Assembly: GCA_024277355.1 (NCBI GenBank)
Contig: JAJRVL010000004.1
Location: forward strand, 180,001 to 212,000
DNA: 32,000 nucleotides
Origin: an archaeon
GTDB taxonomy: Archaea > Iainarchaeota > Iainarchaeia > Iainarchaeales > 1-14-0-10-31-34
Direction of reading: 5' to 3'
Shown here piece after piece: positions 3,888 through 26,697 of the stretch. Below the pieces are notes generated by a model. That model saw nothing but the letters and a program-made list of their open reading frames with translations. It made no database searches and had not been told where the DNA came from. Numbering within the stretch: the first letter of the stretch is position 1; each line of letters starts with the position of its first letter. Made by a program: the position numbers and the translations under genes.

Positions 3888-4757
3888 ATGAAAAGAATAA
3901 GAGTAAACAGAGGATTAGCTAAAATGCTTAAAGGCGGCTGCATAATGGATGTAACAAATGAAAAGCAGGCAAAAATAGCAGAAAAATCAGGAGCAGTAGC
4001 AGTAATGGCATTAGAAAGAATTCCAGCTGACATAAGAAAAGACGGAGGCATTGCAAGAATGAGTGATCCTTCTTTAATAAAAAAAATAATGAAAGAAGTT
4101 TCAATTCCAGTAATGGCAAAAGTAAGAATAGGACATTTTGCTGAAGCACAAATTTTAGAAGAAATAGGAGTAGATTTTATTGATGAATCAGAAGTATTAA
4201 CTCCAGCAGACAATGAATTTCATATAAATAAAATAAAATTCAAAACTCCTTTTGTATGCGGCGCAGTAGATTTAGGCCAGGCATTAAGAAGAATAAATGA
4301 GGGAGCATCAATGATTAGAACTAAAGGCGAAGCAGGAACAGGAAATATAATTGAAGCAGTAAAACATATCAGAACAATTAATTCAGAACTGCAAAAACTA
4401 AAAGAAAAAGAAATTGACATACAGGAAAACTGGGCAAGAAAAGAAAAAATTCCTTTTAGTTTATTAAAATAAACTTTAACAAAAAAAAGAATTCCTGTAG
4501 TTAATTTTGCTGCAGGAGGAATTGCAACTCCAGCTGATGTATCTTTAGTAATGCAGTTAGGAGTAGAAGGAGTTTTTGTTGGTTCAGGAATATTTAAATC
4601 TTCAAATCCATTAAAATTAGCTAAAGCAATAGTTCAGGCAACAACTTATTTTAATGACCCAAATAAATTAGCTAAAGCTTCATTTAATTTAGGAAAAGCA
4701 ATGAAAGGAAATGAATTATCTGAATTAAAAGAAAGATATGCTTCAAGAGGAAAATAA
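3888..4757 (+). pseudogene. pdxS: Pyridoxal 5'-phosphate synthase lyase subunit PdxS, interrupted by one in-frame TAA at 4470-4472
   Basis: ORFs 3888..4472 and 4551..4757 are in the same frame. Reading through the stop gives ...[50 protein letters not shown]..., which is continuous with the canonical PdxS sequence. Other PdxS blocks present: [41 protein letters not shown]. Confidence 0.85.
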
Positions 4758-4772
4758 AAAAAGTGATTTTAT

Positions 4773-5330
4773 TTGATTATTGGAATTCTTGCATTACAAG
4801 GAGACTTTGCAGAACACAAAGAAATTCTGGATAAACTTAAAGTAGAAAGCATTTTAGTTAAAACCAAAGAAGACCTTGAAAAAATTAATGGATTGATTAT
4901 TCCGGGAGGAGAATCAACTGCAATTGGATTATTGCTTGAAAAAACTGGTTTAGGAAAACAAATTATTTCAAAAGCAAAAAAAGGATTAGTAATTTTTGGA
5001 ACTTGTGCAGGCGCAATATTGCTGTCAAAGAAAGTTTTAGGAAAAAAAGAATTTTCTTTTGCATTAATTGACACAGTAATTGAAAGAAATAGTTTTGGAA
5101 GACAAAATGATTCTTTTGAAGAAAAAATAAAAACAAGTTTTGGTGAAATTTCAGTTTCTTTTATTCGTGCACCAAAAATTAAGTCAATTGGAAAAAAAGT
5201 TCAGGTTTTAGGAAAACTAAAAAACGAAATAGTAATTGCAAAACAAAAAAACATTTTAATTGCAACCTGTCACCCTGAAATAACTTTAGATACAAAATTA
5301 CATGAATACTTTCTGAAAATGATTAGATAA
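4773..5330 (+). CDS. pdxT: Pyridoxal 5'-phosphate synthase glutaminase subunit PdxT
   Basis: 185 aa with GILALQGDF, IIPGGESTA, the catalytic Cys context FGTCAG, and a C-terminal CHPE. It sits directly downstream of pdxS. TTG start as in the ORF track. Confidence 0.85.
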   Translation: MIIGILALQGDFAEHKEILDKLKVESILVKTKEDLEKINGLIIPGGESTAIGLLLEKTGLGKQIISKAKKGLVIFGTCAGAILLSKKVLGKKEFSFALIDTVIERNSFGRQNDSFEEKIKTSFGEISVSFIRAPKIKSIGKKVQVLGKLKNEIVIAKQKNILIATCHPEITLDTKLHEYFLKMIR

Positions 5331-5385: not shown

Positions 5386-6264
5386 ATGAGAAGAAAAGCA
5401 AGAAGAACTTCACTTAAAAAAAAGCAGGGATTTCACGGAATAAATCCAAAAGGAAAACTTCTTGATATTAATCAACCAACAGGACAAATAGTTTCAATTA
5501 ATGGAAAAACTTACTATAAAAAAACTCCATTTAAAACATATAAAATGGAAAATAAATCCGGGTTATTAGAATCCATAAAAAAAAGACAAGGCACACCAAT
5601 AAACAAAATTGCAAGAGAAATGACTATAGGAGAATCAATTGTTCTAAGAGGAATCTGGCGGGAATATAACAGAGCAGTAAAAACAAAAAAAATTACTAAC
5701 AGAAATTATTCTTTAAGGCCAATGAAAATTTTAAGAGTTAATGCAAATAAAAGAAGTCCAAACAGCAATTTTATTTTAGCTGAATTTATAGATAAACCTA
5801 CTGTAAGTGATTTACTTAACTTTCTTAACTCAAAAAAACCACAAAAAACAAGAGTAAATGAATTATGTGAAAAATTTCTTAAAGCAAATGGATTAAAAAA
5901 CTGTTTAAGTTCAAAAATAGCAAGAAGAATACTTAAAGCAGAACTTGGTCTTGCAGAAAAACAAGCTTTTGAAGATTTAGTTCAGTCAGCAGAAACTATG
6001 CGAATCAATGCAAAAAAAAGAGGTTTAAACAAAAAGTTTACTCTTGACGTGAGAAACACTAATTTAATGCTTGAATCATACAAAAACAAAAAATTTAATT
6101 TTGTTTTAATTGACCCTTTATTTCCTCAAGATGGAATAAGAGATTTACCTTCAATTCCAAGAACAAAAAAAAGAAATAAACTGGAAGAATGGGAAAACAA
6201 AAAACCAAAAGAACTTTACAGTCCAAAAGGACATGAAAAAAGAATAAACAAAATTAGTCAGTAA
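5386..6264 (+). CDS. Basic protein, distant relative of the kinase-like paralogs at 23883..25893, with extra C-terminal tail
   Basis: 292 aa with a basic N-terminus MRRKARRTSLKKK. NFILAEFIDKPTVSDLL matches NLVAMAKTNKPNLNEIL of the paralogs. TLDVRNTNLMLESYKNKKFNFVLIDPLF matches IDIMPSNILLLGVKNGKFIFMPLIDLY. Confidence 0.5.
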   Translation: MRRKARRTSLKKKQGFHGINPKGKLLDINQPTGQIVSINGKTYYKKTPFKTYKMENKSGLLESIKKRQGTPINKIAREMTIGESIVLRGIWREYNRAVKTKKITNRNYSLRPMKILRVNANKRSPNSNFILAEFIDKPTVSDLLNFLNSKKPQKTRVNELCEKFLKANGLKNCLSSKIARRILKAELGLAEKQAFEDLVQSAETMRINAKKRGLNKKFTLDVRNTNLMLESYKNKKFNFVLIDPLFPQDGIRDLPSIPRTKKRNKLEEWENKKPKELYSPKGHEKRINKISQ

Positions 6265-7549
6265 ACGCCGAAGCAGTTACTCCGCCGTCCCAAGAAAATC
6301 TAGGGCGAATTTTAACCATCCATAAATTTTCAGTGTTATCATCAAGTATAAGCGCAAACCCTTTTGATTTAGGCATTTCCTGATAATATTTATCAAAATT
6401 CTGATGCATATAAGAAGGACGCAAAGCTGAAACAGCTTCAATATCCGGCTGAGAAGTCATTCTATGACTGATAAATAAATCGCATTGAGAAATTGAATCA
6501 GGATGCAGTTTGTCAGGACGCTGTGTTGCAAGAACTAAACTTAAACCCGGCTGTCTTCCAACCCTAACCCATTCCAACAAAACTTTTAATGCAATACTGC
6601 TTCTGTCTTTTGGCATAAACATATGTGCTTCATCTATTAGCATCCAAACAATAGGCATATCTGATTCTTTTTTTTCTCCTTCAATTAATTTCATTTCTTC
6701 TTCTTTTCTATAAAGCATTCTTTCTTCAAATAATCTTTTGCCGATTAAAGCAACAATTATTTCTCTTGTTCCTTCCATTCCAATTGCCTGTCTGTAAGCA
6801 GAAACATCAATTATTGTTATTTTTCCTGGTTCAGCTAAATCCTTTATTTTTGTTCCTTCTTTTTCAAATAAACCCCATGATTTAGCAACTTTTAGTCTTC
6901 CAACAACTGCATCTTTTGTTTTTTTATCTGCATCTTTATCTGACTGAACAGCAGAAATAATTTTTGGAATATCAAATAAAGTTCCAAGTTTTTCTTTAAC
7001 TGAACTAATTATTCTTGAAAGCAATACTCCTTCTGGTTCTTTCCATGTTAAATTAAATAAAGCAAGCCATTCTTCTGATTCTAATTCTGAAACTTTTAAA
7101 GTAAAAGCTCCGTCAACTGGAATTTTTTTTTCTTTATAAAAAGGAAGTTTTCCTTTTGGCACTAAAACTCTTACATCAGTTTTATCAGGAGTTAAATCCC
7201 AATTAAATAATTCTGCTTTTTGTTCTTTGTTTGGAATTTTTAAAGTCCAGAAAATTCCCACAGTGTCAATTGCAATAACTGAAATTCTTTTTTTGATATG
7301 CAAAGGCTGTCTTGCAAATTCTTCTAATAAAACAGCCATAGTATAACTTTTTCCGCCGCCTCTTTTGCCGCAAATTAAAACTACATGAGGTTTAGCTAAA
7401 TCCATTAAAATTTTTCTTCCTAAAACAGGGTTTTCACCTGAACTCATTACAACTTTTCCAATATAAGCAGTTCCTTTTTCTCTATGTTTTTCTAAGTCAT
7501 GCAGACTTCTCCCAATTACTGCTTTTTTTTCTCCTAAATCAATTGTCAT
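6254..7549 (-). CDS. HerA-like / DUF87 P-loop ATPase
   Basis: 431 aa. Walker A is VVLICGKRGGGKSYT and Walker B is WMLIDEAHMF, followed by LVLATQRP and DLFISHRM. This layout is typical of the HerA/FtsK-class DUF87 ATPases. Confidence 0.7.
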   Translation of the reverse strand: MTIDLGEKKAVIGRSLHDLEKHREKGTAYIGKVVMSSGENPVLGRKILMDLAKPHVVLICGKRGGGKSYTMAVLLEEFARQPLHIKKRISVIAIDTVGIFWTLKIPNKEQKAELFNWDLTPDKTDVRVLVPKGKLPFYKEKKIPVDGAFTLKVSELESEEWLALFNLTWKEPEGVLLSRIISSVKEKLGTLFDIPKIISAVQSDKDADKKTKDAVVGRLKVAKSWGLFEKEGTKIKDLAEPGKITIIDVSAYRQAIGMEGTREIIVALIGKRLFEERMLYRKEEEMKLIEGEKKESDMPIVWMLIDEAHMFMPKDRSSIALKVLLEWVRVGRQPGLSLVLATQRPDKLHPDSISQCDLFISHRMTSQPDIEAVSALRPSYMHQNFDKYYQEMPKSKGFALILDDNTENLWMVKIRPRFSWDGGVTASAFTD

Positions 7550-7659
7550 AAAACTCTGTAATAAAAAGAATAACGTTAATTAAATAGTTTTTGCTTAAAA
7601 GAAATCAACTGCAATACACTTTAATAATTATTAAAAACTGTTTTAGACAGAAAGTATTA

Positions 7660-8226
7660 ATGGAATACGTTATTTTAGATACAGAAACCTGTCCTGTTAA
7701 ATTAGAAAAATATTTAGAATTAAATGAAACTGACAGAAAAAAATTATTAAATCCAATTGACTCAAGATTAGTTGCAATAGGATTAAGATATAATGCAAAA
7801 ACAGTAATCATTCAAGATAAAAACGAAAAAATAATGTTAGAAGAATTCTGGAATGAACTAAAGACAGCAAGAAAAAATAAATCAAAAATAGTCGGCTTTA
7901 ACATAAAAGATTTTGATTTACCTTTTTTAGTTACAAGAAGTTTTATTAATAATGTTAAAATTGAATCATTTATAATTAAAGATGTAATTGACTTAAGAGA
8001 AAAAGTTTCTGCTTTTCGTTATGGACAGACAAGAGGAAAACTAAAAGAATTCGGAGAATTCATGGGAATTGAATTACATGAAATGGATGGAAGTAAAGTT
8101 GCAGAAGAATGCATTAAAGGAAATTTTGAAAAACTAAAAGAATACTTAAAAAAAGATTTAGAAATAACAGAACAAATGCTAAAACGAATTGTTGAAACAA
8201 GAATAATTGAAATTGAACGCTGGTAA
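7660..8226 (+). CDS. RNase H-fold 3'-5' exonuclease of the PolB-exonuclease-like (DEDDy) type
   Basis: Starts at ATG 7660 (MEYVILDTET). Exo I is ILDTET, Exo II is GFNIKDFDLPFL, and Exo III is Y-x3-D in EYLKKDLE. The ORF-track TTG start at 7591 adds 23 non-conserved residues. Confidence 0.6.
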   Translation: MEYVILDTETCPVKLEKYLELNETDRKKLLNPIDSRLVAIGLRYNAKTVIIQDKNEKIMLEEFWNELKTARKNKSKIVGFNIKDFDLPFLVTRSFINNVKIESFIIKDVIDLREKVSAFRYGQTRGKLKEFGEFMGIELHEMDGSKVAEECIKGNFEKLKEYLKKDLEITEQMLKRIVETRIIEIERW

Positions 8227-18136: not shown

Positions 18137-20530
18137 TTATTTCTGTTCAGTTTCAGCAAGTTTTAATTCAAATTTTCCTTCTTTAATTTGAGCATTACAC
18201 ACTGCTTTTAAGTCATCTAAAGCAGTTCCAATTGAATTAGTGGTTTCTTTTTCAAGTGAAAGAATTATTTCTGCTTTAAGTGAAACATGTTTTTCTGCTT
18301 TAAATTTTCTTACTTTAGAAATAACTTCAATTGCTTTTTGTCCTGCATCAAAAGCTTTTTTGTTTTCAAGTTCTTTTTGGAATTCAGGAAAAGCAGAAAC
18401 ATGAATGCTTTTTTGTTTTTCTTTTTTTGCAAAATATAACTGATAAATTTCTTCTGTAATAAAAGGCATTATTGGAGCAAAACCTTTTAAGATTCCCAAT
18501 AAAATTGTTTCTAAAGTAAATTGAGCTGAAGTTTTAGATTGTTTTCCTCTTTTTTCTTCATTATAAATTCTGTCTTTAATTATTTCAAGATAATTGTCTG
18601 TAAAGTCATTCCAAAAAAATAATTCTAATTCAGATTTTGCTTTGCCGTATTCATATGCATCAAAATGTTTTGTCATATTTTGTATTGTTTCATTAAATTT
18701 ATGCAAAATCCATAAATCCATTAACTCTAATTCTTTTGGTTTTTTTCCATTAAAATCTTCTAAATTCATTATTGAAAATTTTGATGCATTCCATAATTTA
18801 GTAATTAATTTTTGTCCTGTCTGAACATCTTTTTCCTGAAATGGAGCATCATAACCTAAATTAATTGTTGAAGCCCAATACCTTAAAGCATCAGCTGAAT
18901 ATCTTTGAATTATTTGTTCTGGAGTAATTACATTTCCTTTAGATTTAGACATTTTTTTTCCTTTTGAATCCAAGCCCCATCCTGAAATCATTATGTCTTT
19001 CCATGGAACTTTTTTTGTATGCAGTAAAGATTTAACTATTGTATTAAACGCCCAAAAAGTAATTATGTCATGCCCCTGAGGACGCAAAGACATTGGAAAA
19101 ATTTCTTTATTAAAATCTGTTTTTCCTTTCCAGTCAGCATTAATTAATGGAGTCAAAGAACTTGTAGCCCAGGTATCCATAATGTCTTTTTCAGGAATAA
19201 AATCAGTTGAACCGCATTTGCATGATTTTTTTGGTTTGTCTTTTAATGGGTCAACCGGAAGACTTTTTTTGTCTGCTAAAATTGTTTCATTGCATTTGTT
19301 ACAATACCATACAGGAAAAGGAATTCCATAAAATCTTTGCCTTGAAATACACCAGTCCCATTGCAGTCCTTTAATCCAGTTGTCAAATCTGTGTTTCATA
19401 AATTCAGGAAACCAGTTTAATGTTTTTCCTGCTTTTAAAAATTCATCTTTTAAATCCAGGTATTTGATAAACCATTGTTTTGTAACCAAAAATTCAATCG
19501 GCGTCTGGCATCTTTCATGAACATTAACTGCATGTTTTATTGGTCTTTGTTCTTTTAATAAATTTTTTGTTTTTAATTCTTCTAAAATTGATTTTCTTGC
19601 TTCCTTTAATTTTAATCCTTCAAATTTTCCTGCTTTTTCATTTAGTTTTCCATATTTATTAATTATAATTCTTAAAGGTAAATTAAATGCTTTCCACCAT
19701 TCCATGTCCACTTGATCTCCAAAAGTACAATTCATTACTATTCCTGAACCTTTATTTGGATCAACTCTTTTATCGCCAAAAACCTGAACAGAGTAATCCA
19801 TTAAAGGAACTTTAATTTTTTTTCCAATCAAATAATTATTTTTTTTGTCTTCTGGGTTAACTATTACTGCAACACAAGCAGGAATTAATTCAGGGCGTGT
19901 TGTTGAAATCACAATTTTTTTGCCGTCTTCTGTTTCAAATAAAACATCATTAAAAGTTGAATCAAATTCTTTGTCTTCTAATTCAACCTGCGAAATAGCT
20001 GTTTGACAGTCAGGACACCAGATTGTTGGAGCTTCTTTTCTGTATTCTCTTCCTTGTTCAAATAATTCAATAAATGAAAGCTGAGAAATTTTTCTTACTT
20101 TAGGGCTGATTGTACTGTAAAATAAATTCCAGTCACAGCTTATTCCTAAAGATTTCCAGACTTTTTTGTATTCTTCTTCTGCTCTAAGTGTTTCTTCTAA
20201 ACAAATTTTAATGAATTCATTTCTGTCCATTTTTGAAGCTTTAATTTTACGTTTTTTTTCAACAAATTTTTCTGTCGGCAAACCATTATCATCAAAGCCA
20301 AAAGGATAAAAAACAGAAAAACCTTTCATTCTTTTATATCTTGCAATGAATTCTGCCTGAGAATAACTAAATGCATGCCCTATATGGATTGTGCCTGAAA
20401 TAGTCGGAGGAGGAGTGTCAATTGAATAAATTTTTTTTCCTGGAGAAAACTTAAATAATTTTTCTTTTTCCCAGTAATCACTCCATTTTTTTTCTGATTC
20501 TGATGCATTATACTTTTTTGATAGTTCCAT
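18137..20530 (-). CDS. valS: Valyl-tRNA synthetase (archaeal/actinobacterial type)
   Basis: 797 aa with IDTPPPTISGTIHIGHAFS (HIGH), FGFDDNGLPTE and KMSKSKGN (KMSKS). Size and N-terminal pattern fit ValRS rather than IleRS or LeuRS. Confidence 0.85.
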   Translation of the reverse strand: MELSKKYNASESEKKWSDYWEKEKLFKFSPGKKIYSIDTPPPTISGTIHIGHAFSYSQAEFIARYKRMKGFSVFYPFGFDDNGLPTEKFVEKKRKIKASKMDRNEFIKICLEETLRAEEEYKKVWKSLGISCDWNLFYSTISPKVRKISQLSFIELFEQGREYRKEAPTIWCPDCQTAISQVELEDKEFDSTFNDVLFETEDGKKIVISTTRPELIPACVAVIVNPEDKKNNYLIGKKIKVPLMDYSVQVFGDKRVDPNKGSGIVMNCTFGDQVDMEWWKAFNLPLRIIINKYGKLNEKAGKFEGLKLKEARKSILEELKTKNLLKEQRPIKHAVNVHERCQTPIEFLVTKQWFIKYLDLKDEFLKAGKTLNWFPEFMKHRFDNWIKGLQWDWCISRQRFYGIPFPVWYCNKCNETILADKKSLPVDPLKDKPKKSCKCGSTDFIPEKDIMDTWATSSLTPLINADWKGKTDFNKEIFPMSLRPQGHDIITFWAFNTIVKSLLHTKKVPWKDIMISGWGLDSKGKKMSKSKGNVITPEQIIQRYSADALRYWASTINLGYDAPFQEKDVQTGQKLITKLWNASKFSIMNLEDFNGKKPKELELMDLWILHKFNETIQNMTKHFDAYEYGKAKSELELFFWNDFTDNYLEIIKDRIYNEEKRGKQSKTSAQFTLETILLGILKGFAPIMPFITEEIYQLYFAKKEKQKSIHVSAFPEFQKELENKKAFDAGQKAIEVISKVRKFKAEKHVSLKAEIILSLEKETTNSIGTALDDLKAVCNAQIKEGKFELKLAETEQK

Positions 20531-21399: not shown

Positions 21400-22062
21400 A
21401 TGAAAGTGTTAATTCCATTAATTTCAAGGCATGAATCAAACCCTGAATTTATAGATAAAGCAGTTAAAGGAACAGAAGAAGTATTACTGTTAATTGTAAT
21501 AGACAAAGATGATTCATTAAAAGCTTCAGATATTTCAAGTTCAACTCATTTTTTAGAAGAAGTAAAAAAATTAATAGGAAAAAAAAGAAAAAAATGTGAA
21601 GACTTAACTGAATGGGGAGAAACAAAAGCAAAAATAAAAAACACAGCAATAATTAATAAAGTAGACAAAATTGTGTTGTTAAAACAGGAAAACCAGTTTT
21701 TTGAAGATTTAATTGAAGAACTAAAAAAAGAAAAAGAACTCAAAAACAAAATTGAATTAATTGAAATTGATTTTGAAAAACAAGAACAAGAACAAAAAGA
21801 ATTTGAAGACAGCTTAAATGAAATAGAAGAAAAAACAAGTGAAAACAAAACAGAAAATGCAGAAGAAGAAAAAGAAAACATACAAGAAGAAAAAATAAAA
21901 GAAAACAAAACAAAAGGCGAAAATAAAATAAAAAATAAAACAATTAATTCAACAGAAAAAGTCGTTAAAAATGCAATGAAAGACACTAAAGTAATTGCAG
22001 ATAAACTAATCAAACAAGGCTTTAAATCAATTGACTCAATAAAAAAAATTAAATGGAAATAA
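21400..22062 (+). CDS. Hypothetical protein: USP-like N-terminal domain plus K/E/N-rich low-complexity tail
   Basis: 220 aa. MKVLIPLISRHES...EEVLLLIVID...VDKIVLL resembles an adenine-nucleotide alpha-hydrolase / universal stress protein fold. The last ~100 aa are an acidic/basic low-complexity region. Confidence 0.4.
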   Translation: MKVLIPLISRHESNPEFIDKAVKGTEEVLLLIVIDKDDSLKASDISSSTHFLEEVKKLIGKKRKKCEDLTEWGETKAKIKNTAIINKVDKIVLLKQENQFFEDLIEELKKEKELKNKIELIEIDFEKQEQEQKEFEDSLNEIEEKTSENKTENAEEEKENIQEEKIKENKTKGENKIKNKTINSTEKVVKNAMKDTKVIADKLIKQGFKSIDSIKKIKWK

Positions 22063-23763: not shown

Positions 23764-23886
23764 ATGAAACCTAAAAAAGAAGGATTTCCATTAAAAAAAA
23801 AGAAGAAAAAGAAAAAAATTAAAATTCCTTTTGAAGATTTAACAAGCCTTCCTTCAGAAAACGAATATGGAAATGAATTTCATTAA
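23764..23886 (+). CDS. Possible 40-aa lysine-rich peptide (weak)
   Basis: Hand translation gives MKPKKEGFPLKKKKKKKKIKIPFEDLTSLPSENEYGNEFH. Its stop overlaps the stop of the convergent ORF 23883..24530. It could be a chance ORF in A-rich DNA. Confidence 0.2.
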   Translation: MKPKKEGFPLKKKKKKKKIKIPFEDLTSLPSENEYGNEFH

Positions 23887-24530
23887 TATAAGTCAATTAA
23901 AGGCATGAAAATAAATTTTCCGTTTTTTACTCCTAATAACAAAATATTTGAAGGCATAATATCTATTTTTTCATAAACTTGTTTTGCTGCCTGTTCAAGT
24001 TGTTTTTTAGTAAATCCGTGTTTTTTGCTTAATTTTCTGAAAAATTGCCGGCCTTTTGTTGTAGGAGAAGCTTCAATAATATGGGGTTTAAGTTTAATAT
24101 CTCCTAAAATTTCATTTAAATTAGGTTTATTTGTTTTAGCCATTGCAACTAAATTATTTCCTAAATCATAAGCAATTGGTTCACGTAAAACAAAATTCAA
24201 ATCCTTTGGTATTCCTTTTTTTTTAATTAGTTCATTATAATTTCTAACTCTAAGCTGAATTTCTCTTAACTCTGTATTTGCTCCCCTCATGTCAGCATGC
24301 ATTTTTTTTATTACTAATTTTACTCCAGGATAATTCCTTGAAATATTCATTTGCCTTATTCTTCCTCCCCAAACATAAGTATCTTTTGACGGAACTTTAA
24401 AAATATTTTTTCTGGCAAAATCATTTTGTCTTGGATCAATGTTTTTCATTCTTCCTAAAGACTTATTAATTTTAGTTGAAACTTTTTTTAATCTTGAAAC
24501 AAGTTTTTTAGGCAAAGGTTTTACAGGCAT
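23883..24530 (-). CDS. Kinase-like paralog 1 (215 aa) with basic MPVKPLPKKLVSRLKK N-terminus
   Basis: Conserved blocks: GGRIRQMNISRNYPGVKLVIKKMH, REPIAYDLGNNLVAMAKTNKPNLNEILG, IDIMPSNILLLGVKNGKFIFMPLIDLY. Confidence 0.65.
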   Translation of the reverse strand: MPVKPLPKKLVSRLKKVSTKINKSLGRMKNIDPRQNDFARKNIFKVPSKDTYVWGGRIRQMNISRNYPGVKLVIKKMHADMRGANTELREIQLRVRNYNELIKKKGIPKDLNFVLREPIAYDLGNNLVAMAKTNKPNLNEILGDIKLKPHIIEASPTTKGRQFFRKLSKKHGFTKKQLEQAAKQVYEKIDIMPSNILLLGVKNGKFIFMPLIDLY

Positions 24531-24565
24531 AATAAAATTAGTTTTTTGTTATTTAAAATACTGGT

Positions 24566-25207
24566 TTAAAACAAGTCAATTAAAGGCATAAAAACAAGTT
24601 TTCCTTTATGCATTCCAACAAATTCCATTTGATCCGGAAGAATTCTAAGTAAATTGCATGCTTTGCCTAACTCTAAATAATATTTTACTCGAGGAATTTT
24701 ATTTTTCTTTAATGTTTCAGTTAAAGCTTTTCCTCTTAAACCTTTAATTTCCTGCATCGCAACAAGATTTTCTGCAAGCAAATGAACATCAGGCATTACC
24801 ACTTCATGATTTTTTGCTGAAACAGTTTTATTGTATTCCTGAACTTTTCCTTTTATTCTTTGAATTGTTTTTAATGCAGTTGAACTGTGAATTCTTTTCA
24901 AAATTACTCTTACTCCTGGAAAATTTCTTGAAACATTTAATTCTCTGACTCTTCCGCCGACAAATCTTGAATCAATTTTTCCAGGTTTAGTAAAAAAAGC
25001 TTTTAGTCCTTCTTTTTTTAATTCTTTAATAACATTTTTTTCTAAAATACTCATTTTTTTTCTATGATCAACATTTTCAAGTCTTTCAAAAGATTTAATT
25101 AAATCTTTTTTTCCATGCCTTTCAAGTCTTTTAGCTGTAGTTAATCTTAATCTGTTAACTAGTTTTGTCGGCAAAGGCTTGAAAAAAGGATTAAGTTTTT
25201 TTGGCAT
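24566..25207 (-). CDS. Kinase-like paralog 2 (213 aa), divergent copy lacking the D-x4-N element
   Basis: Blocks: KPLPTKLVNRLRL, GGRVRELNVSRNFPGVRVILKRIH, LVAMQEIKG, RILPDQMEFVGMHKGKLVFMPLIDLF. Confidence 0.65.
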   Translation of the reverse strand: MPKKLNPFFKPLPTKLVNRLRLTTAKRLERHGKKDLIKSFERLENVDHRKKMSILEKNVIKELKKEGLKAFFTKPGKIDSRFVGGRVRELNVSRNFPGVRVILKRIHSSTALKTIQRIKGKVQEYNKTVSAKNHEVVMPDVHLLAENLVAMQEIKGLRGKALTETLKKNKIPRVKYYLELGKACNLLRILPDQMEFVGMHKGKLVFMPLIDLF

Positions 25208-25239
25208 AAATACAATTGTAGTTTTCTTTCTTTAAAATA

Positions 25240-25893
25240 TTATTGCAAATCAACTAAAGGCATAAAAACAAACTTTCCGTTTTTTACGCCTAATAAAAGA
25301 ATGTTTCTGGTTGGAAAATCTATATATTTTGTTTTTGTTCTTCTGTAAAATCTTCCAAACGCTTCATTTAACTGTGTTTTAGTTACTCTGTGTTTTTTCT
25401 TTAATTTTCTGAAAAACTCCTGTCCTCTGATTGTTTTTCCATTAGAACCTAAAATTTCATCTAAATTAGGTTTATTTGTTTTAGCCATTGCAACTAAACC
25501 ATTGCCTAAAGCATAAGCAATAGGTTCACGTAAAACATAATTTTCTGGTTCAAAAGACTTGTTATGACTTTTAACTATTTTTTTTATTTCATTTATTTCT
25601 TTAATTGAATTAGGTGCAACATGAATTTTTTTTATTACTAACTTTATTCCAGGAAACTGTTTTGAAACATCCATCTCCCTTACTCTTCCTCCTGCACTGC
25701 TTATATTTTTTGGATTTAAAGCTAAAAGTTGTTTTATTTCAGGGTCATTTCTTCTATGGTCAATGTTTTTCATTGAACCTAAATTACCTGAAATTTCTTC
25801 TTTTCCTTGTTTAAATCTTTTTCTTTGTTCCCGTTTATCAGTAATTTTTTTTAATCTTGAAACAAGTTTTTTAGGCAGAGGTTTTGTCGGCAT
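25240..25893 (-). CDS. Kinase-like paralog 3 (217 aa from MPTKPLPKK)
   Basis: Start moved to ATG 25893 to match the paralog N-termini. Blocks: GGRVREMDVSKQFPGIKLVIKKIH, REPIAYALGNGLVAMAKTNKPNLDEILG, IDFPTRNILLLGVKNGKFVFMPLVDLQ. Confidence 0.65.
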   Translation of the reverse strand: MPTKPLPKKLVSRLKKITDKREQRKRFKQGKEEISGNLGSMKNIDHRRNDPEIKQLLALNPKNISSAGGRVREMDVSKQFPGIKLVIKKIHVAPNSIKEINEIKKIVKSHNKSFEPENYVLREPIAYALGNGLVAMAKTNKPNLDEILGSNGKTIRGQEFFRKLKKKHRVTKTQLNEAFGRFYRRTKTKYIDFPTRNILLLGVKNGKFVFMPLVDLQ

Positions 25894-25960
25894 AATATAA
25901 TTAGATTTTTGTTGTTTAAAAAACAAATGTTTTTGAATATTTTTTGGTTTTTTGTCTTAG

Positions 25961-26165
25961 AGAAAAAAAACAGAAGGAGGAAAAAGCACGCCTTAAAGAC
26001 GTGCTATCCCCAACTGAACGGGGTGAAGTCGTACAGTGATATTAACGGATAAACCGTTATCAGGAAGCAGTTTGTTCATTGACAGCAATGAGTATTTCTA
26101 AAGAGAAATCTTTTATCTGCTTCCTGAAAAAGGAAGAGAAACCTAAATTAAAATCTTCTTCCATT
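25961..26165. ncRNA. Hairpin-dense GC-enriched non-coding island, candidate structured RNA of unknown class
   Basis: Simple hairpins: AGCACG-N9-CGTGCT (25985-26005), CCCC-N8-GGGG (26008-26023), TAACGG-ATAAA-CCGTTA (26043-26059). An 11-bp helix TCAGGAAGCAG / CTGCTTCCTGA (26060-26070 / 26117-26127) encloses TCATTG-ACAG-CAATGA and ATTTCT-AAAG-AGAAAT. GGAAGAG...CTTCTTCC spans 26132-26162. No ORF. Confidence 0.4.
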
Positions 26166-26196: not shown

Positions 26197-26697
26197 TTAA
26201 ATATTTGGAAGCCTTACTGCCCGTGATATTCCTTTTTCAAGTAATGAATTAAATTCTTTTTGTGAAGGATGAAATTCATCTATGTTAACTTTATATTTTT
26301 CTTTAACAGAAGCTGAAACACTTGGGAAATATTTTTTTGCACTTTCAATTAATTGAAGATCAGCAACAATAATATCTGCACTTTTAAGCAGTTTAATTCT
26401 TGCATAAGTAGTTTCTTTTCCTATAGCTAAATTTAAAGCAACATTACTTAAAATAAAATTTTCAGAAAAACCTCTTTTTCTTAAAAATTCCCCAAACAAT
26501 TTCTGTGTTTTTTCACTTCTTGTATAAAGTGAACCAAAAAAAACTATTTTCAACGGACGTTTATTTTCTAATTTTTTTTTAATGTTTTTTAAAATGAATT
26601 TTTTTCTTTTAACTAAATCTGGTTTAGGTTTTTTCTTTGCTTTAGGAGAACGCAAACTATGCATTTTCCTTCTTCTTGCTTTTAAAGGAGTAGTCAT
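26197..26697 (-). CDS. Hypothetical protein with highly basic N-terminal extension
   Basis: 166-aa ORF. The N-terminus MTTPLKARRRKMHSLRSPKAKKKPKPDLVKRKKF is followed by a possible alpha/beta domain (LKIVFFGS...ADIIVADL). No firm family assignment. Confidence 0.5.
   Translation of the reverse strand: MTTPLKARRRKMHSLRSPKAKKKPKPDLVKRKKFILKNIKKKLENKRPLKIVFFGSLYTRSEKTQKLFGEFLRKRGFSENFILSNVALNLAIGKETTYARIKLLKSADIIVADLQLIESAKKYFPSVSASVKEKYKVNIDEFHPSQKEFNSLLEKGISRAVRLPNI

Follow-up and report, generated by a model that had tools for sequence, protein, structure and literature searches.

A family of small basic archaeal proteins, three of them encoded by tandem genes, that may correspond to the nucleotide-binding core of a kinase-like domain

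A 32,000-nucleotide (nt) stretch of archaeal DNA (part of contig JAJRVL010000004.1; hereafter the window, to which coordinates refer unless another locus is named) carries three minus-strand open reading frames (ORFs), placed head to tail with spacers of 35 and 32 nt, which were numbered copies 1, 2 and 3 by ascending window position. Their products belong to an unannotated family of DPANN-type archaea that evolves fast. The family probably works like, and derives from, the nucleotide-binding core of a protein-kinase-like (PKL) domain, a likeness that falls short of demonstrated membership of the PKL superfamily. The probability that the proteins bind Mg-ATP through K75, N195, D213 and an adenine pocket, and then hydrolyze ATP or switch on a polyanionic partner, was put at about 0.5.

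Gene structure and the protein family

The initial annotation of this DNA had described three head-to-tail paralogs, and this description holds: the three ORFs lie on the minus strand at the coordinates below and align from end to end, with identities to copy 1 of 38% (copy 2) and 57% (copy 3).

Copy 1: 23883..24530, minus strand; ORF of 215 amino acids, type 1; probable ortholog of P0002 from a related genome
Copy 1 key codons, read from the sequence: minus strand; D32, 24437-24435; K75, 24308-24306; N195, 23948-23946; D213, 23894-23892; stop, 23885-23883
Copy 2: 24566..25207, minus strand; ORF of 213 amino acids, type-2 subfamily
Copy 3: 25240..25893, minus strand; ORF of 217 amino acids from the ATG at 25893; older type-1 paralog

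The ORF of copy 3 could be extended to an upstream TTG at 25926; the ATG at 25893 was taken as the start because the N-terminus of the family (MPxKPLP) is conserved.

A word-indexed search for relatives yielded 17 proteins, and 41 with a profile, all of them unnamed or 'hypothetical' and labelled by source as 'archaeon' or 'Candidatus Diapherotrites archaeon'. The exhaustive profile search against 1.84 billion cluster representatives (clusters at 50% identity) gave 276 family representatives at E<=1e-3, of which 166 were at E<=1e-30; nearly all are 190-230 amino acids long and match the profile from the first to the last position. Because the same architecture recurs in these 276 representatives elsewhere, the observation is far beyond chance. 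Literature searched for the family contained no description of it, and scans of the three window proteins with Pfam, NCBIfam, PADLOC and PHROG gave no significant match. With Pfam, no recurrent family was found among 149 aligned members either (a weak UBact match in 7, best E 0.067).

The conservation counts below refer to the alignment of these 149 members, with residue numbers of copy 1. Both termini are conserved: 135 members start exactly at MPxKPLPxxLVxRL, and 134 terminate exactly two residues past D213. Termination right after this Asp is a constant trait of the family, not something confined to the window locus. The stop had been placed 1-2 residues after the final Asp; the early stop was confirmed, and the distance is exactly 2 in all three proteins. 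The motifs quoted earlier for the copies, namely GGR(I/V)R, LVIKK/VILKR, LVAMAKTNKPNL.EI, DIMPSNILLL/DFPTRNILLL, LPDQMEFVG and PL(I/V)DL, were all found, and the final Asp (residue 213) indeed lies 18 residues past the Asn (residue 195).

The most conserved residues are D32 and K75 (149 of 149 each), R34 and M130 (148 each), D213 (145 D and 4 E), R59 (144), R57 (138), P136 (137), E140 (132) and L211 (130), and G200 and P210 are also among the invariant or near-invariant positions. Position 58 is V in 125 members and I in 21, V73 is kept in 115 and L197 in 105; position 195 holds N in 111 and otherwise mostly H (15), Q (7) or D (7), and is followed by L/I-L-L. Further strongly conserved residues are H78, A84, H98-N99, Y113, P118, Y121, T157-x-R159-G160 and G204-K205. 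The family is very basic, with a median isoelectric point of 10.3 and a median net charge of +20 (+28 or +29 for the window copies).

Evidence for a kinase-like core

Of the residues for which conservation had been anticipated from a kinase reading, the Lys is kept without exception, the final Asp is kept or replaced by Glu, and the Asn is N in 111 members. Three residues typical of the PKL superfamily can thus be assigned: the beta3 (VAIK) Lys as K75, the catalytic-loop Asn (second metal ligand) as N195, replaced by Q in the type-2 subfamily including copy 2, and the DFG-equivalent metal-binding Asp after beta8 as D213. In the comparison of motifs, we took G55-x-R57-V58 to resemble the end of the Gly-rich loop (G55-R56-V57 of PKA), L-V-I-K75 the kinase VAIK, L-I-A-M130 the beta5 strand with a gatekeeper Met, E140 the ribose-binding Glu of alphaD, N195-L-L197 the N171-L-L173 of PKA, and x-D213 the DFG Asp. 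The Lys-to-Asn and Lys-to-Asp spacings are 120 and 138 residues in the family versus 116 and 128 in the RIO1 alignment A5.

Structures were predicted with AlphaFold2 for copy 1 (predicted local distance difference test score (pLDDT) 88.3, predicted template modelling score (pTM) 0.83) and, from a different alignment, for copy 2 (pLDDT 88.9, pTM 0.82). After N-terminal helices, both models have the element order beta-beta-helix-beta-beta-beta-helix-helix-helix-beta-hairpin. K75 is located on the second strand (residues 72-76, preceded by L-V-I), and is followed by a long helix, three strands up to M130, a short helix, two helices, and the terminal hairpin (196-210), directly after which D213 is found. 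In these models, the order would correspond to beta2-beta3-alphaC-beta4-beta5-hinge-alphaD-alphaE-beta7-beta8-DFG. When the models were compared with the Protein Data Bank (PDB) by Foldseek, 50 of the top 50 matches of copy 1 and 49 of those of copy 2 were PKL proteins, spanning MEK1, TTK, IKK-beta, PknB/PknG, Bud32 and the pre-40S entry 6rbd_l (RIO2-containing), with further matches to macrolide/aminoglycoside phosphotransferases, PsiK, PI3K/PI4K and CurKC. Kinases also predominated against predicted viral structures, among which the highest template modelling score (TM-score), 0.36, was obtained with a 210-amino-acid phage 'ABC1 atypical kinase-like' protein.

From these data we infer the fold, the nucleotide binding and the partner as follows. 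The chain would fold into the nucleotide-binding core of a PKL domain, in which G55-x-R57-V58-R59 would be the end of the Gly-rich loop, with V58 as the adenine-capping Val; LVIK75 would supply the beta3 Lys, with a long alphaC-like helix next; and a beta4-beta5 unit would finish at the invariant 'gatekeeper-like' Met130. The hinge and alphaD (P136, E140) would then lead to two alphaE-like helices, the N195-L-L strand and a beta-hairpin finishing at the metal-binding Asp213, and V58, V73, M130 and L197 would line a hydrophobic adenine pocket. The N-terminal ~45 residues, which contain the invariant D32-x-R34, were modelled at pLDDT 95-98; this conserved helical extension (MPxKPLPxxLVxRL ... 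NID32-H-R34) would pack on the core in place of the activation segment and alphaF-alphaI, and, as modelled, may stand in structurally for the lost helices, join the active site, or both.

ATP/Mg2+ binding with hydrolysis or switching is the likeliest activity, because K75, N195, D213 and the adenine-pocket positions are conserved, in contrast to the HRD Asp and the alphaC Glu (see below); the role of an ATPase, a switch or an atypical transferase is more likely than that of a conventional Ser/Thr/Tyr protein kinase, since there is neither a catalytic base nor a substrate lobe. ATP hydrolysis or nucleotide-dependent switching would take place on a polyanion, for example RNA or a ribonucleoprotein, as for the minimal atypical kinases Bud32 and RIO. 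Such a polyanionic partner would follow the Bud32/RIO precedent and fits the extreme positive charge of the family.

Observations against the kinase-like fold and alternative explanations

A number of results weigh against this assignment. As for structure, no Foldseek match reached E<1e-3 (the best was 1.7e-3), the TM-scores were 0.13-0.36 and the root-mean-square deviations mostly 7-20 Å, so that the models share local geometry and element order with kinases but superpose poorly on them.

As for residues, position 190, equivalent to the Asp of HRD, is G in 62, N in 13, D in 11 and E in 11 of the members. The initial annotation had counted the first Asp of D-x4-N as a signature element; copies 1 and 3 do have D at this position, which is unusual for the family, and copy 2 has R, so that this Asp is no family feature. 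Nor was an acidic residue conserved in helix 87-105 that could be the alphaC Glu (position 87 is T in 64, V in 24 and E in 22, and positions 86 and 90 are variable). The helical C-lobe (activation segment, alphaF-alphaI) is absent, as had been claimed for the window proteins and as now applies to the 134 members that stop at D213+2; we know of no kinase-fold protein that ends at the DFG Asp.

As for profiles, PDB sequence-profile searches returned no kinase, and the kinase signal in the Pfam scan of the 149 members was a single RIO1 match (E=0.023), none recurring. The hhalign comparison with the RIO1 alignment (54 sequences) gave a score of 15.0 (Prob 0.2%), within the range of 32 reversed or block-shuffled controls (11.6-22.1). 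Its summed posterior, 68.9, was marginally the highest (<=65.4 in the controls), and the Lys-Lys match was off by four positions in this alignment. A permissive alignment to RIO1 placed M130/M136, P136/Pro, N195/N185 and D213/D197 in register. Thus, similarity to a PKL family was detected neither with Pfam, NCBIfam and PDB profiles nor with hhalign against RIO1. Finally, no conserved neighbourhood pointing to a pathway was found among the member loci examined. Taken as a whole, the motif order, spacing, conservation and the Foldseek lists composed almost entirely of PKL proteins favour the kinase-fold reading of the initial annotation, and the weakness of all structural matches and the missing profile support disfavour it.

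These difficulties would be accounted for if the family had no kinship with kinases and were a new alpha/beta fold, a basic lineage-specific protein with possibly a nucleic-acid-binding or structural role, whose order of strands and helices and few polar residues would resemble a kinase N-lobe by chance, the Foldseek matches then being local 3Di similarity only. This explanation is possible, though we consider it somewhat unlikely. It agrees with the sub-threshold status of every Foldseek match (TM <=0.36), the profile-profile score equal to that of shuffled controls, the extreme positive charge, the rapid divergence (53-62% identity versus 80-87% for housekeeping neighbours) and the varying gene positions. 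It does not readily explain why ~99/100 of the listed Foldseek matches across the two models are PKL proteins, where kinases make up, by a rough estimate, only a few percent of PDB chains, why the invariant Lys lies within a strand, in the sequence L-V-I-K, with Asn-Leu-Leu and a hairpin-terminal Asp at kinase-like spacing, or why the Met/hinge, Asn and Asp are in register with the RIO1 alignment.

Alternatively, the proteins could be active minimal kinases or phosphotransferases in which a different invariant residue takes over from the HRD Asp, the most plausible candidate being D32, together with R34, in an N-terminal extension lying over the cleft; we regard this as unlikely. D32 and R34 are as conserved as K75 (149, 148 and 149 of 149), the confidence of the extension (pLDDT 95-98) means that it is modelled as packed on the core, copies 1 and 3 have D at position 190 in addition, and the N-terminal KxGQ extension of UbiB/COQ8, which reaches the active site, provides a parallel. 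However, the nearness of D32 to K75 and D213 is a conjecture, R57 and R59 flank V58 on the strand, so that D32, R34, R57 and R59 could equally form structural salt bridges that fix the extension to the N-lobe, and the substrate-binding lobe is absent. A bolder form, which we hold to be doubtful, is a self-sufficient 'half-kinase', the smallest known PKL enzyme, in which the N-lobe plus the beta7-beta8/Asp hairpin would bind Mg-ATP and the N-terminal D32-x-R34 would complete the active site in place of the C-lobe; type-1/type-2 heteromers would then be conceivable, and the enzyme would have diversified fast among DPANN archaea, conceivably under symbiont-host or RNA-directed conflict.

A split kinase with its C-lobe in an adjacent gene was rejected, since no partner ORF recurs downstream. 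That the genes are decaying duplicates or mis-called, functionless ORFs has nothing in its favour beyond the missing annotation, and the conservation data refute this very improbable explanation: the ORFs are uninterrupted, the 149 members share conserved termini at both ends, invariant residues are kept, and for every one of the three copies a closer relative exists in another genome.

A weak profile match (E=0.004, 53 residues) to the monofunctional peptidoglycan glycosyltransferase of S. aureus, which aligned family positions 126-178 (copy 1 ~24155-23997) with C-terminal helices of that protein through a shared 'K-x-N-A-P-S-V..I' type motif, was judged to be a short-motif coincidence, and no fold matches support it.

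Comparison with known kinase-like proteins

One of the closest parallels for the proposed core is Bud32/PRPK (of KEOPS), which is likewise a small archaeal/eukaryotic minimal kinase-like protein of ~200-220 amino acids without an activation segment. Among the Foldseek matches of copy 1 it had the highest probability (8k20_B, prob 0.84 over 166 aligned columns; also 3en9/3enh), with a TM-score of only 0.27-0.28. Bud32 works on an RNA-protein complex as an ATPase, and for the present family the same role is only proposed. In Bud32 the catalytic-loop Asp is retained, a helical C-lobe, reduced but real, continues past the DFG-equivalent Asp, and Pfam kinase models recognize the protein, whereas the family has no catalytic-loop Asp, no C-lobe past D213 and no Pfam kinase match. 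RIO1/RIO2 are similar in being archaeal, basic and without an activation loop, with an ATPase-type function in ribosome maturation; however, D180, N185 and D197 (HxDLSEYN) are invariant in the RIO1 alignment A5, of which the first Asp is lacking in the family, and RIO continues for ~50 residues past IDxGQ where the family stops at D213+2. The family therefore has neither the HxD-x4-N loop nor the C-terminal helical segment past the metal-binding Asp that would place it with Bud32 or RIO. At least one genome with the family (L007) also has a RIO1 gene of its own, and therefore the family is not a simple RIO replacement.

The minimal bacterial effector kinases OspG/NleH, HopBF1 and SteC resemble the family in being very small, fast-evolving products of accessory genes. 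They come from host-associated microbes and have a reduced C-lobe, but keep the catalytic Asp and alphaF. The minimal kinase domain of SteC is discussed in PMC13395416. No homology of these effectors to the family was detected, and a host-effector role for the archaeal proteins would be pure speculation. UbiB/ABC1/COQ8 resemble the family in that a conserved extension at the N-terminus of a PKL core carries an invariant motif, which in UbiB folds onto the active site; UbiB is, however, much larger, has a full C-lobe and the catalytic Asp, and matches PF03109, a model matched by 0 of the 149 family members. Structure-based surveys keep finding atypical PKL families (PMC9758233, PMC10870513, bioRxiv 10.64898/2026.09.18.752743), so that such a find is plausible and not unprecedented in kind.

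Relations among the three copies

The three genes fall into two lineages, with copies 1 and 3 in type 1 and copy 2 in type 2. Copy 1 is 64% identical in amino acids to P0002 and clusters with it in the neighbour-joining (NJ) tree, while copy 3 branches outside the clade of copy 1 and its orthologs. Copy 2 is 59% identical to P0166 (L002 3410-4093) and clusters with P0166 and P0015. These three have Q195 in common, lack 8 residues of the hinge (the AKTNKPNL segment in copy 2) and retain D32, R34, R57, R59, K75 and D213. The middle copy had been regarded as a possible pseudo-enzyme for want of the D-x4-N element. This needs revising: because it belongs to a conserved second lineage shared with P0166 and P0015, copy 2 is neither decaying nor a one-off pseudo-enzyme.

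The near-identical DNA tracts reported for copies 1 and 3 proved exact (24103-24153 against 25448-25498 with 1 mismatch in 51 nt; 24483-24514 against 25846-25877, 32/32), and the similarity extends upstream of the genes, with 87% identity of copies 1 and 3 over the 31 nt before the ATG.

Near-identical tract of copies 1 and 3: 24103..24153 versus 25448-25498, minus strand; 1 mismatch per 51 nt; encodes LVAMAKTNKPNL.EI
Shared tract of copies 1 and 3: 24483..24561 versus 25846-25924, minus strand; 32 nt identical over the LPKKLVSRLKK codons, plus the upstream stretch

In a simulation with synonymous codons drawn from the codon usage of the window (5000 trials), the longest exact run had a mean of 18 nt (95th percentile 26), compared with the observed runs of 37 nt, within 24103-24153, and of 32 nt; a run of >=37 nt had a probability of 0.0008, and a second run of >=32 nt occurred in 0/5000 simulations. 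At identical residues, 78% of the codons are identical between copies 1 and 3, versus 63 +/- 4% expected. Because it reaches non-coding DNA, the similarity points to common descent of the DNA or to conversion rather than to protein-level constraint alone. Exact runs of 20-30 nt were also found in the AMAKTNKP tract between different genomes, and constraint with A/T codon bias thus accounts for part of the signal. Between the two events that had been suggested, recent duplication of copies 1 and 3 is not supported by the pairwise identities and the NJ tree, copy 1 being nearer to P0002 than to copy 3, and local gene conversion between these old paralogs is likely.

A T(A/T)TTTTAAA motif was found 21-32 nt 5' of the ATG of each copy. 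Because its position matches the known position of the archaeal TATA box, the motifs were read as putative separate promoters for each copy, which would give leaderless or short-leader mRNAs.

TATTTTAAAT, A/T-rich TATA-box-like motif: 24551..24560, minus strand; 21-30 nt upstream of the copy 1 ATG; putative function
TATTTTAAAG, TATA-like motif: 25230..25239, minus strand; 23-32 nt upstream of the copy 2 ATG; putative function
TTTTTTAAAC, TATA-like motif: 25914..25923, minus strand; 21-30 nt upstream of the copy 3 ATG; putative function

Genomic neighbourhood

The window (G+C ~28%), which belongs to a contig of 526,574 bp, contains genes for a tRNA-intron endonuclease (EndA), a class-I TrpRS/TyrRS-type synthetase, a class-I (Ile/Leu/Met/Val-type) tRNA synthetase, an H+-pyrophosphatase (H+-PPase) and Alba. 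When it was compared with the collinear loci L001 and L002 from related genomes, the housekeeping neighbours (class-I synthetase at 18137-20530, TrpRS-type synthetase, EndA and H+-PPase) were 80-87% identical, versus 53-62% for the family orthologs. The surrounding gene order is otherwise conserved, and at least four different slots in it hold family genes.

Directly downstream of the TrpRS-type synthetase: L001, L002, L015
Between H+-PPase and EndA: window, L002
Between dihydroorotate dehydrogenase and H+-PPase: L001
GILT-thioredoxin/P-type ATPase slot: L013 2584-3204, between the two genes; L011 3895-4515, directly after the GILT/thioredoxin gene, near the contig end

In the window, the P-type ATPase and GILT/thioredoxin genes are convergent, 6 nt apart (16092/16099), and the family slot is empty; this slot reflects gain, loss or relocation of family genes within a collinear backbone. 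A tandem family pair is also present in L021. By these comparisons, the family is a fast-evolving accessory gene set that shifts position.

Guilt by association failed: only closer relatives share the TrpRS/EndA neighbourhood, and the neighbours of distant members are unrelated (beta-CASP RNase, GCS2-like ligase, acetyl-CoA synthetase, topo VI, cytidylyltransferase and HerA-like ATPase). The close-subfamily patterns AMAKTNK and VLR[EK]P[IK]AY had no relative in the IMG/VR viral contigs; with this result and the absence of PADLOC and PHROG matches, a virus or defence association was discarded.

Note that a HerA-like ATPase (L021 3589-4884) adjoins the tandem pair of L021. A HerA/DUF87-type ATPase is also present in the window (6254-7549, minus strand), where it adjoins a small PolB-exonuclease-like protein with the RNase H fold (7591-8226, plus strand); the recurrence is probably coincidental.

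Other features of the window

A candidate small RNA was noted at 25960-26150, upstream of copy 3, in a locally G+C-richer intergenic segment with its conserved core at 26059-26141 (minus-strand orientation). The predicted folding energy of 25960-26150 is -55.7 kcal/mol for the minus strand versus -33.8 +/- 3.9 kcal/mol for shuffles (z=-5.6), and z=-5.0 was obtained for the plus strand. The core of ~70 nt would form a perfect 11-bp stem (UCAGGAAGCAG...CUGCUUCCUGA) around two hairpins, followed in the window by a GC hairpin and a U-run, and it is 79-81% conserved in two related genomes (L002 3277-3360 and L001 3969-4040). Comparison of the candidate with Rfam gave no match. In L001 it is followed by no family gene, so that a role as leader of the family genes is improbable.

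Two further lineage-specific ORFs flanking the three copies were recorded: one at 21400-22062 (plus strand) for a 220-amino-acid, Lys/Glu-rich low-complexity protein, 53-69% identical to its L001/L002 neighbours, and one at 26197-26697 (minus strand) for a basic protein of 166 amino acids, for which neither a homolog in the related loci nor a family match was found. The PdxS (SOR/SNZ) gene looks split into a 194-amino-acid ORF (3888-4472; Pfam positions 3-191/207) and a 68-amino-acid ORF (4551-4757) resembling the C-terminal part of PdxS, with PdxT (SNO) next at 4773-5330; a frameshift, pseudogene, assembly error or insertion could be the cause.

Conclusions

If the likeness to kinases is superficial, the family would still be a well-defined, uncharacterized lineage-specific protein, but an ordinary one. 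If the fold assignment is true, the family would show how little of a kinase domain suffices for a Lys/Asn/Asp nucleotide site, everything past the DFG Asp being dispensable or replaceable by an N-terminal extension. It would then be relevant to how the kinase fold arose and to the mechanisms of pseudokinases and ATPases, and would make a multi-copy, fast-evolving 'dark matter' family approachable at the level of function in DPANN archaea, where unknown genes dominate the biology.

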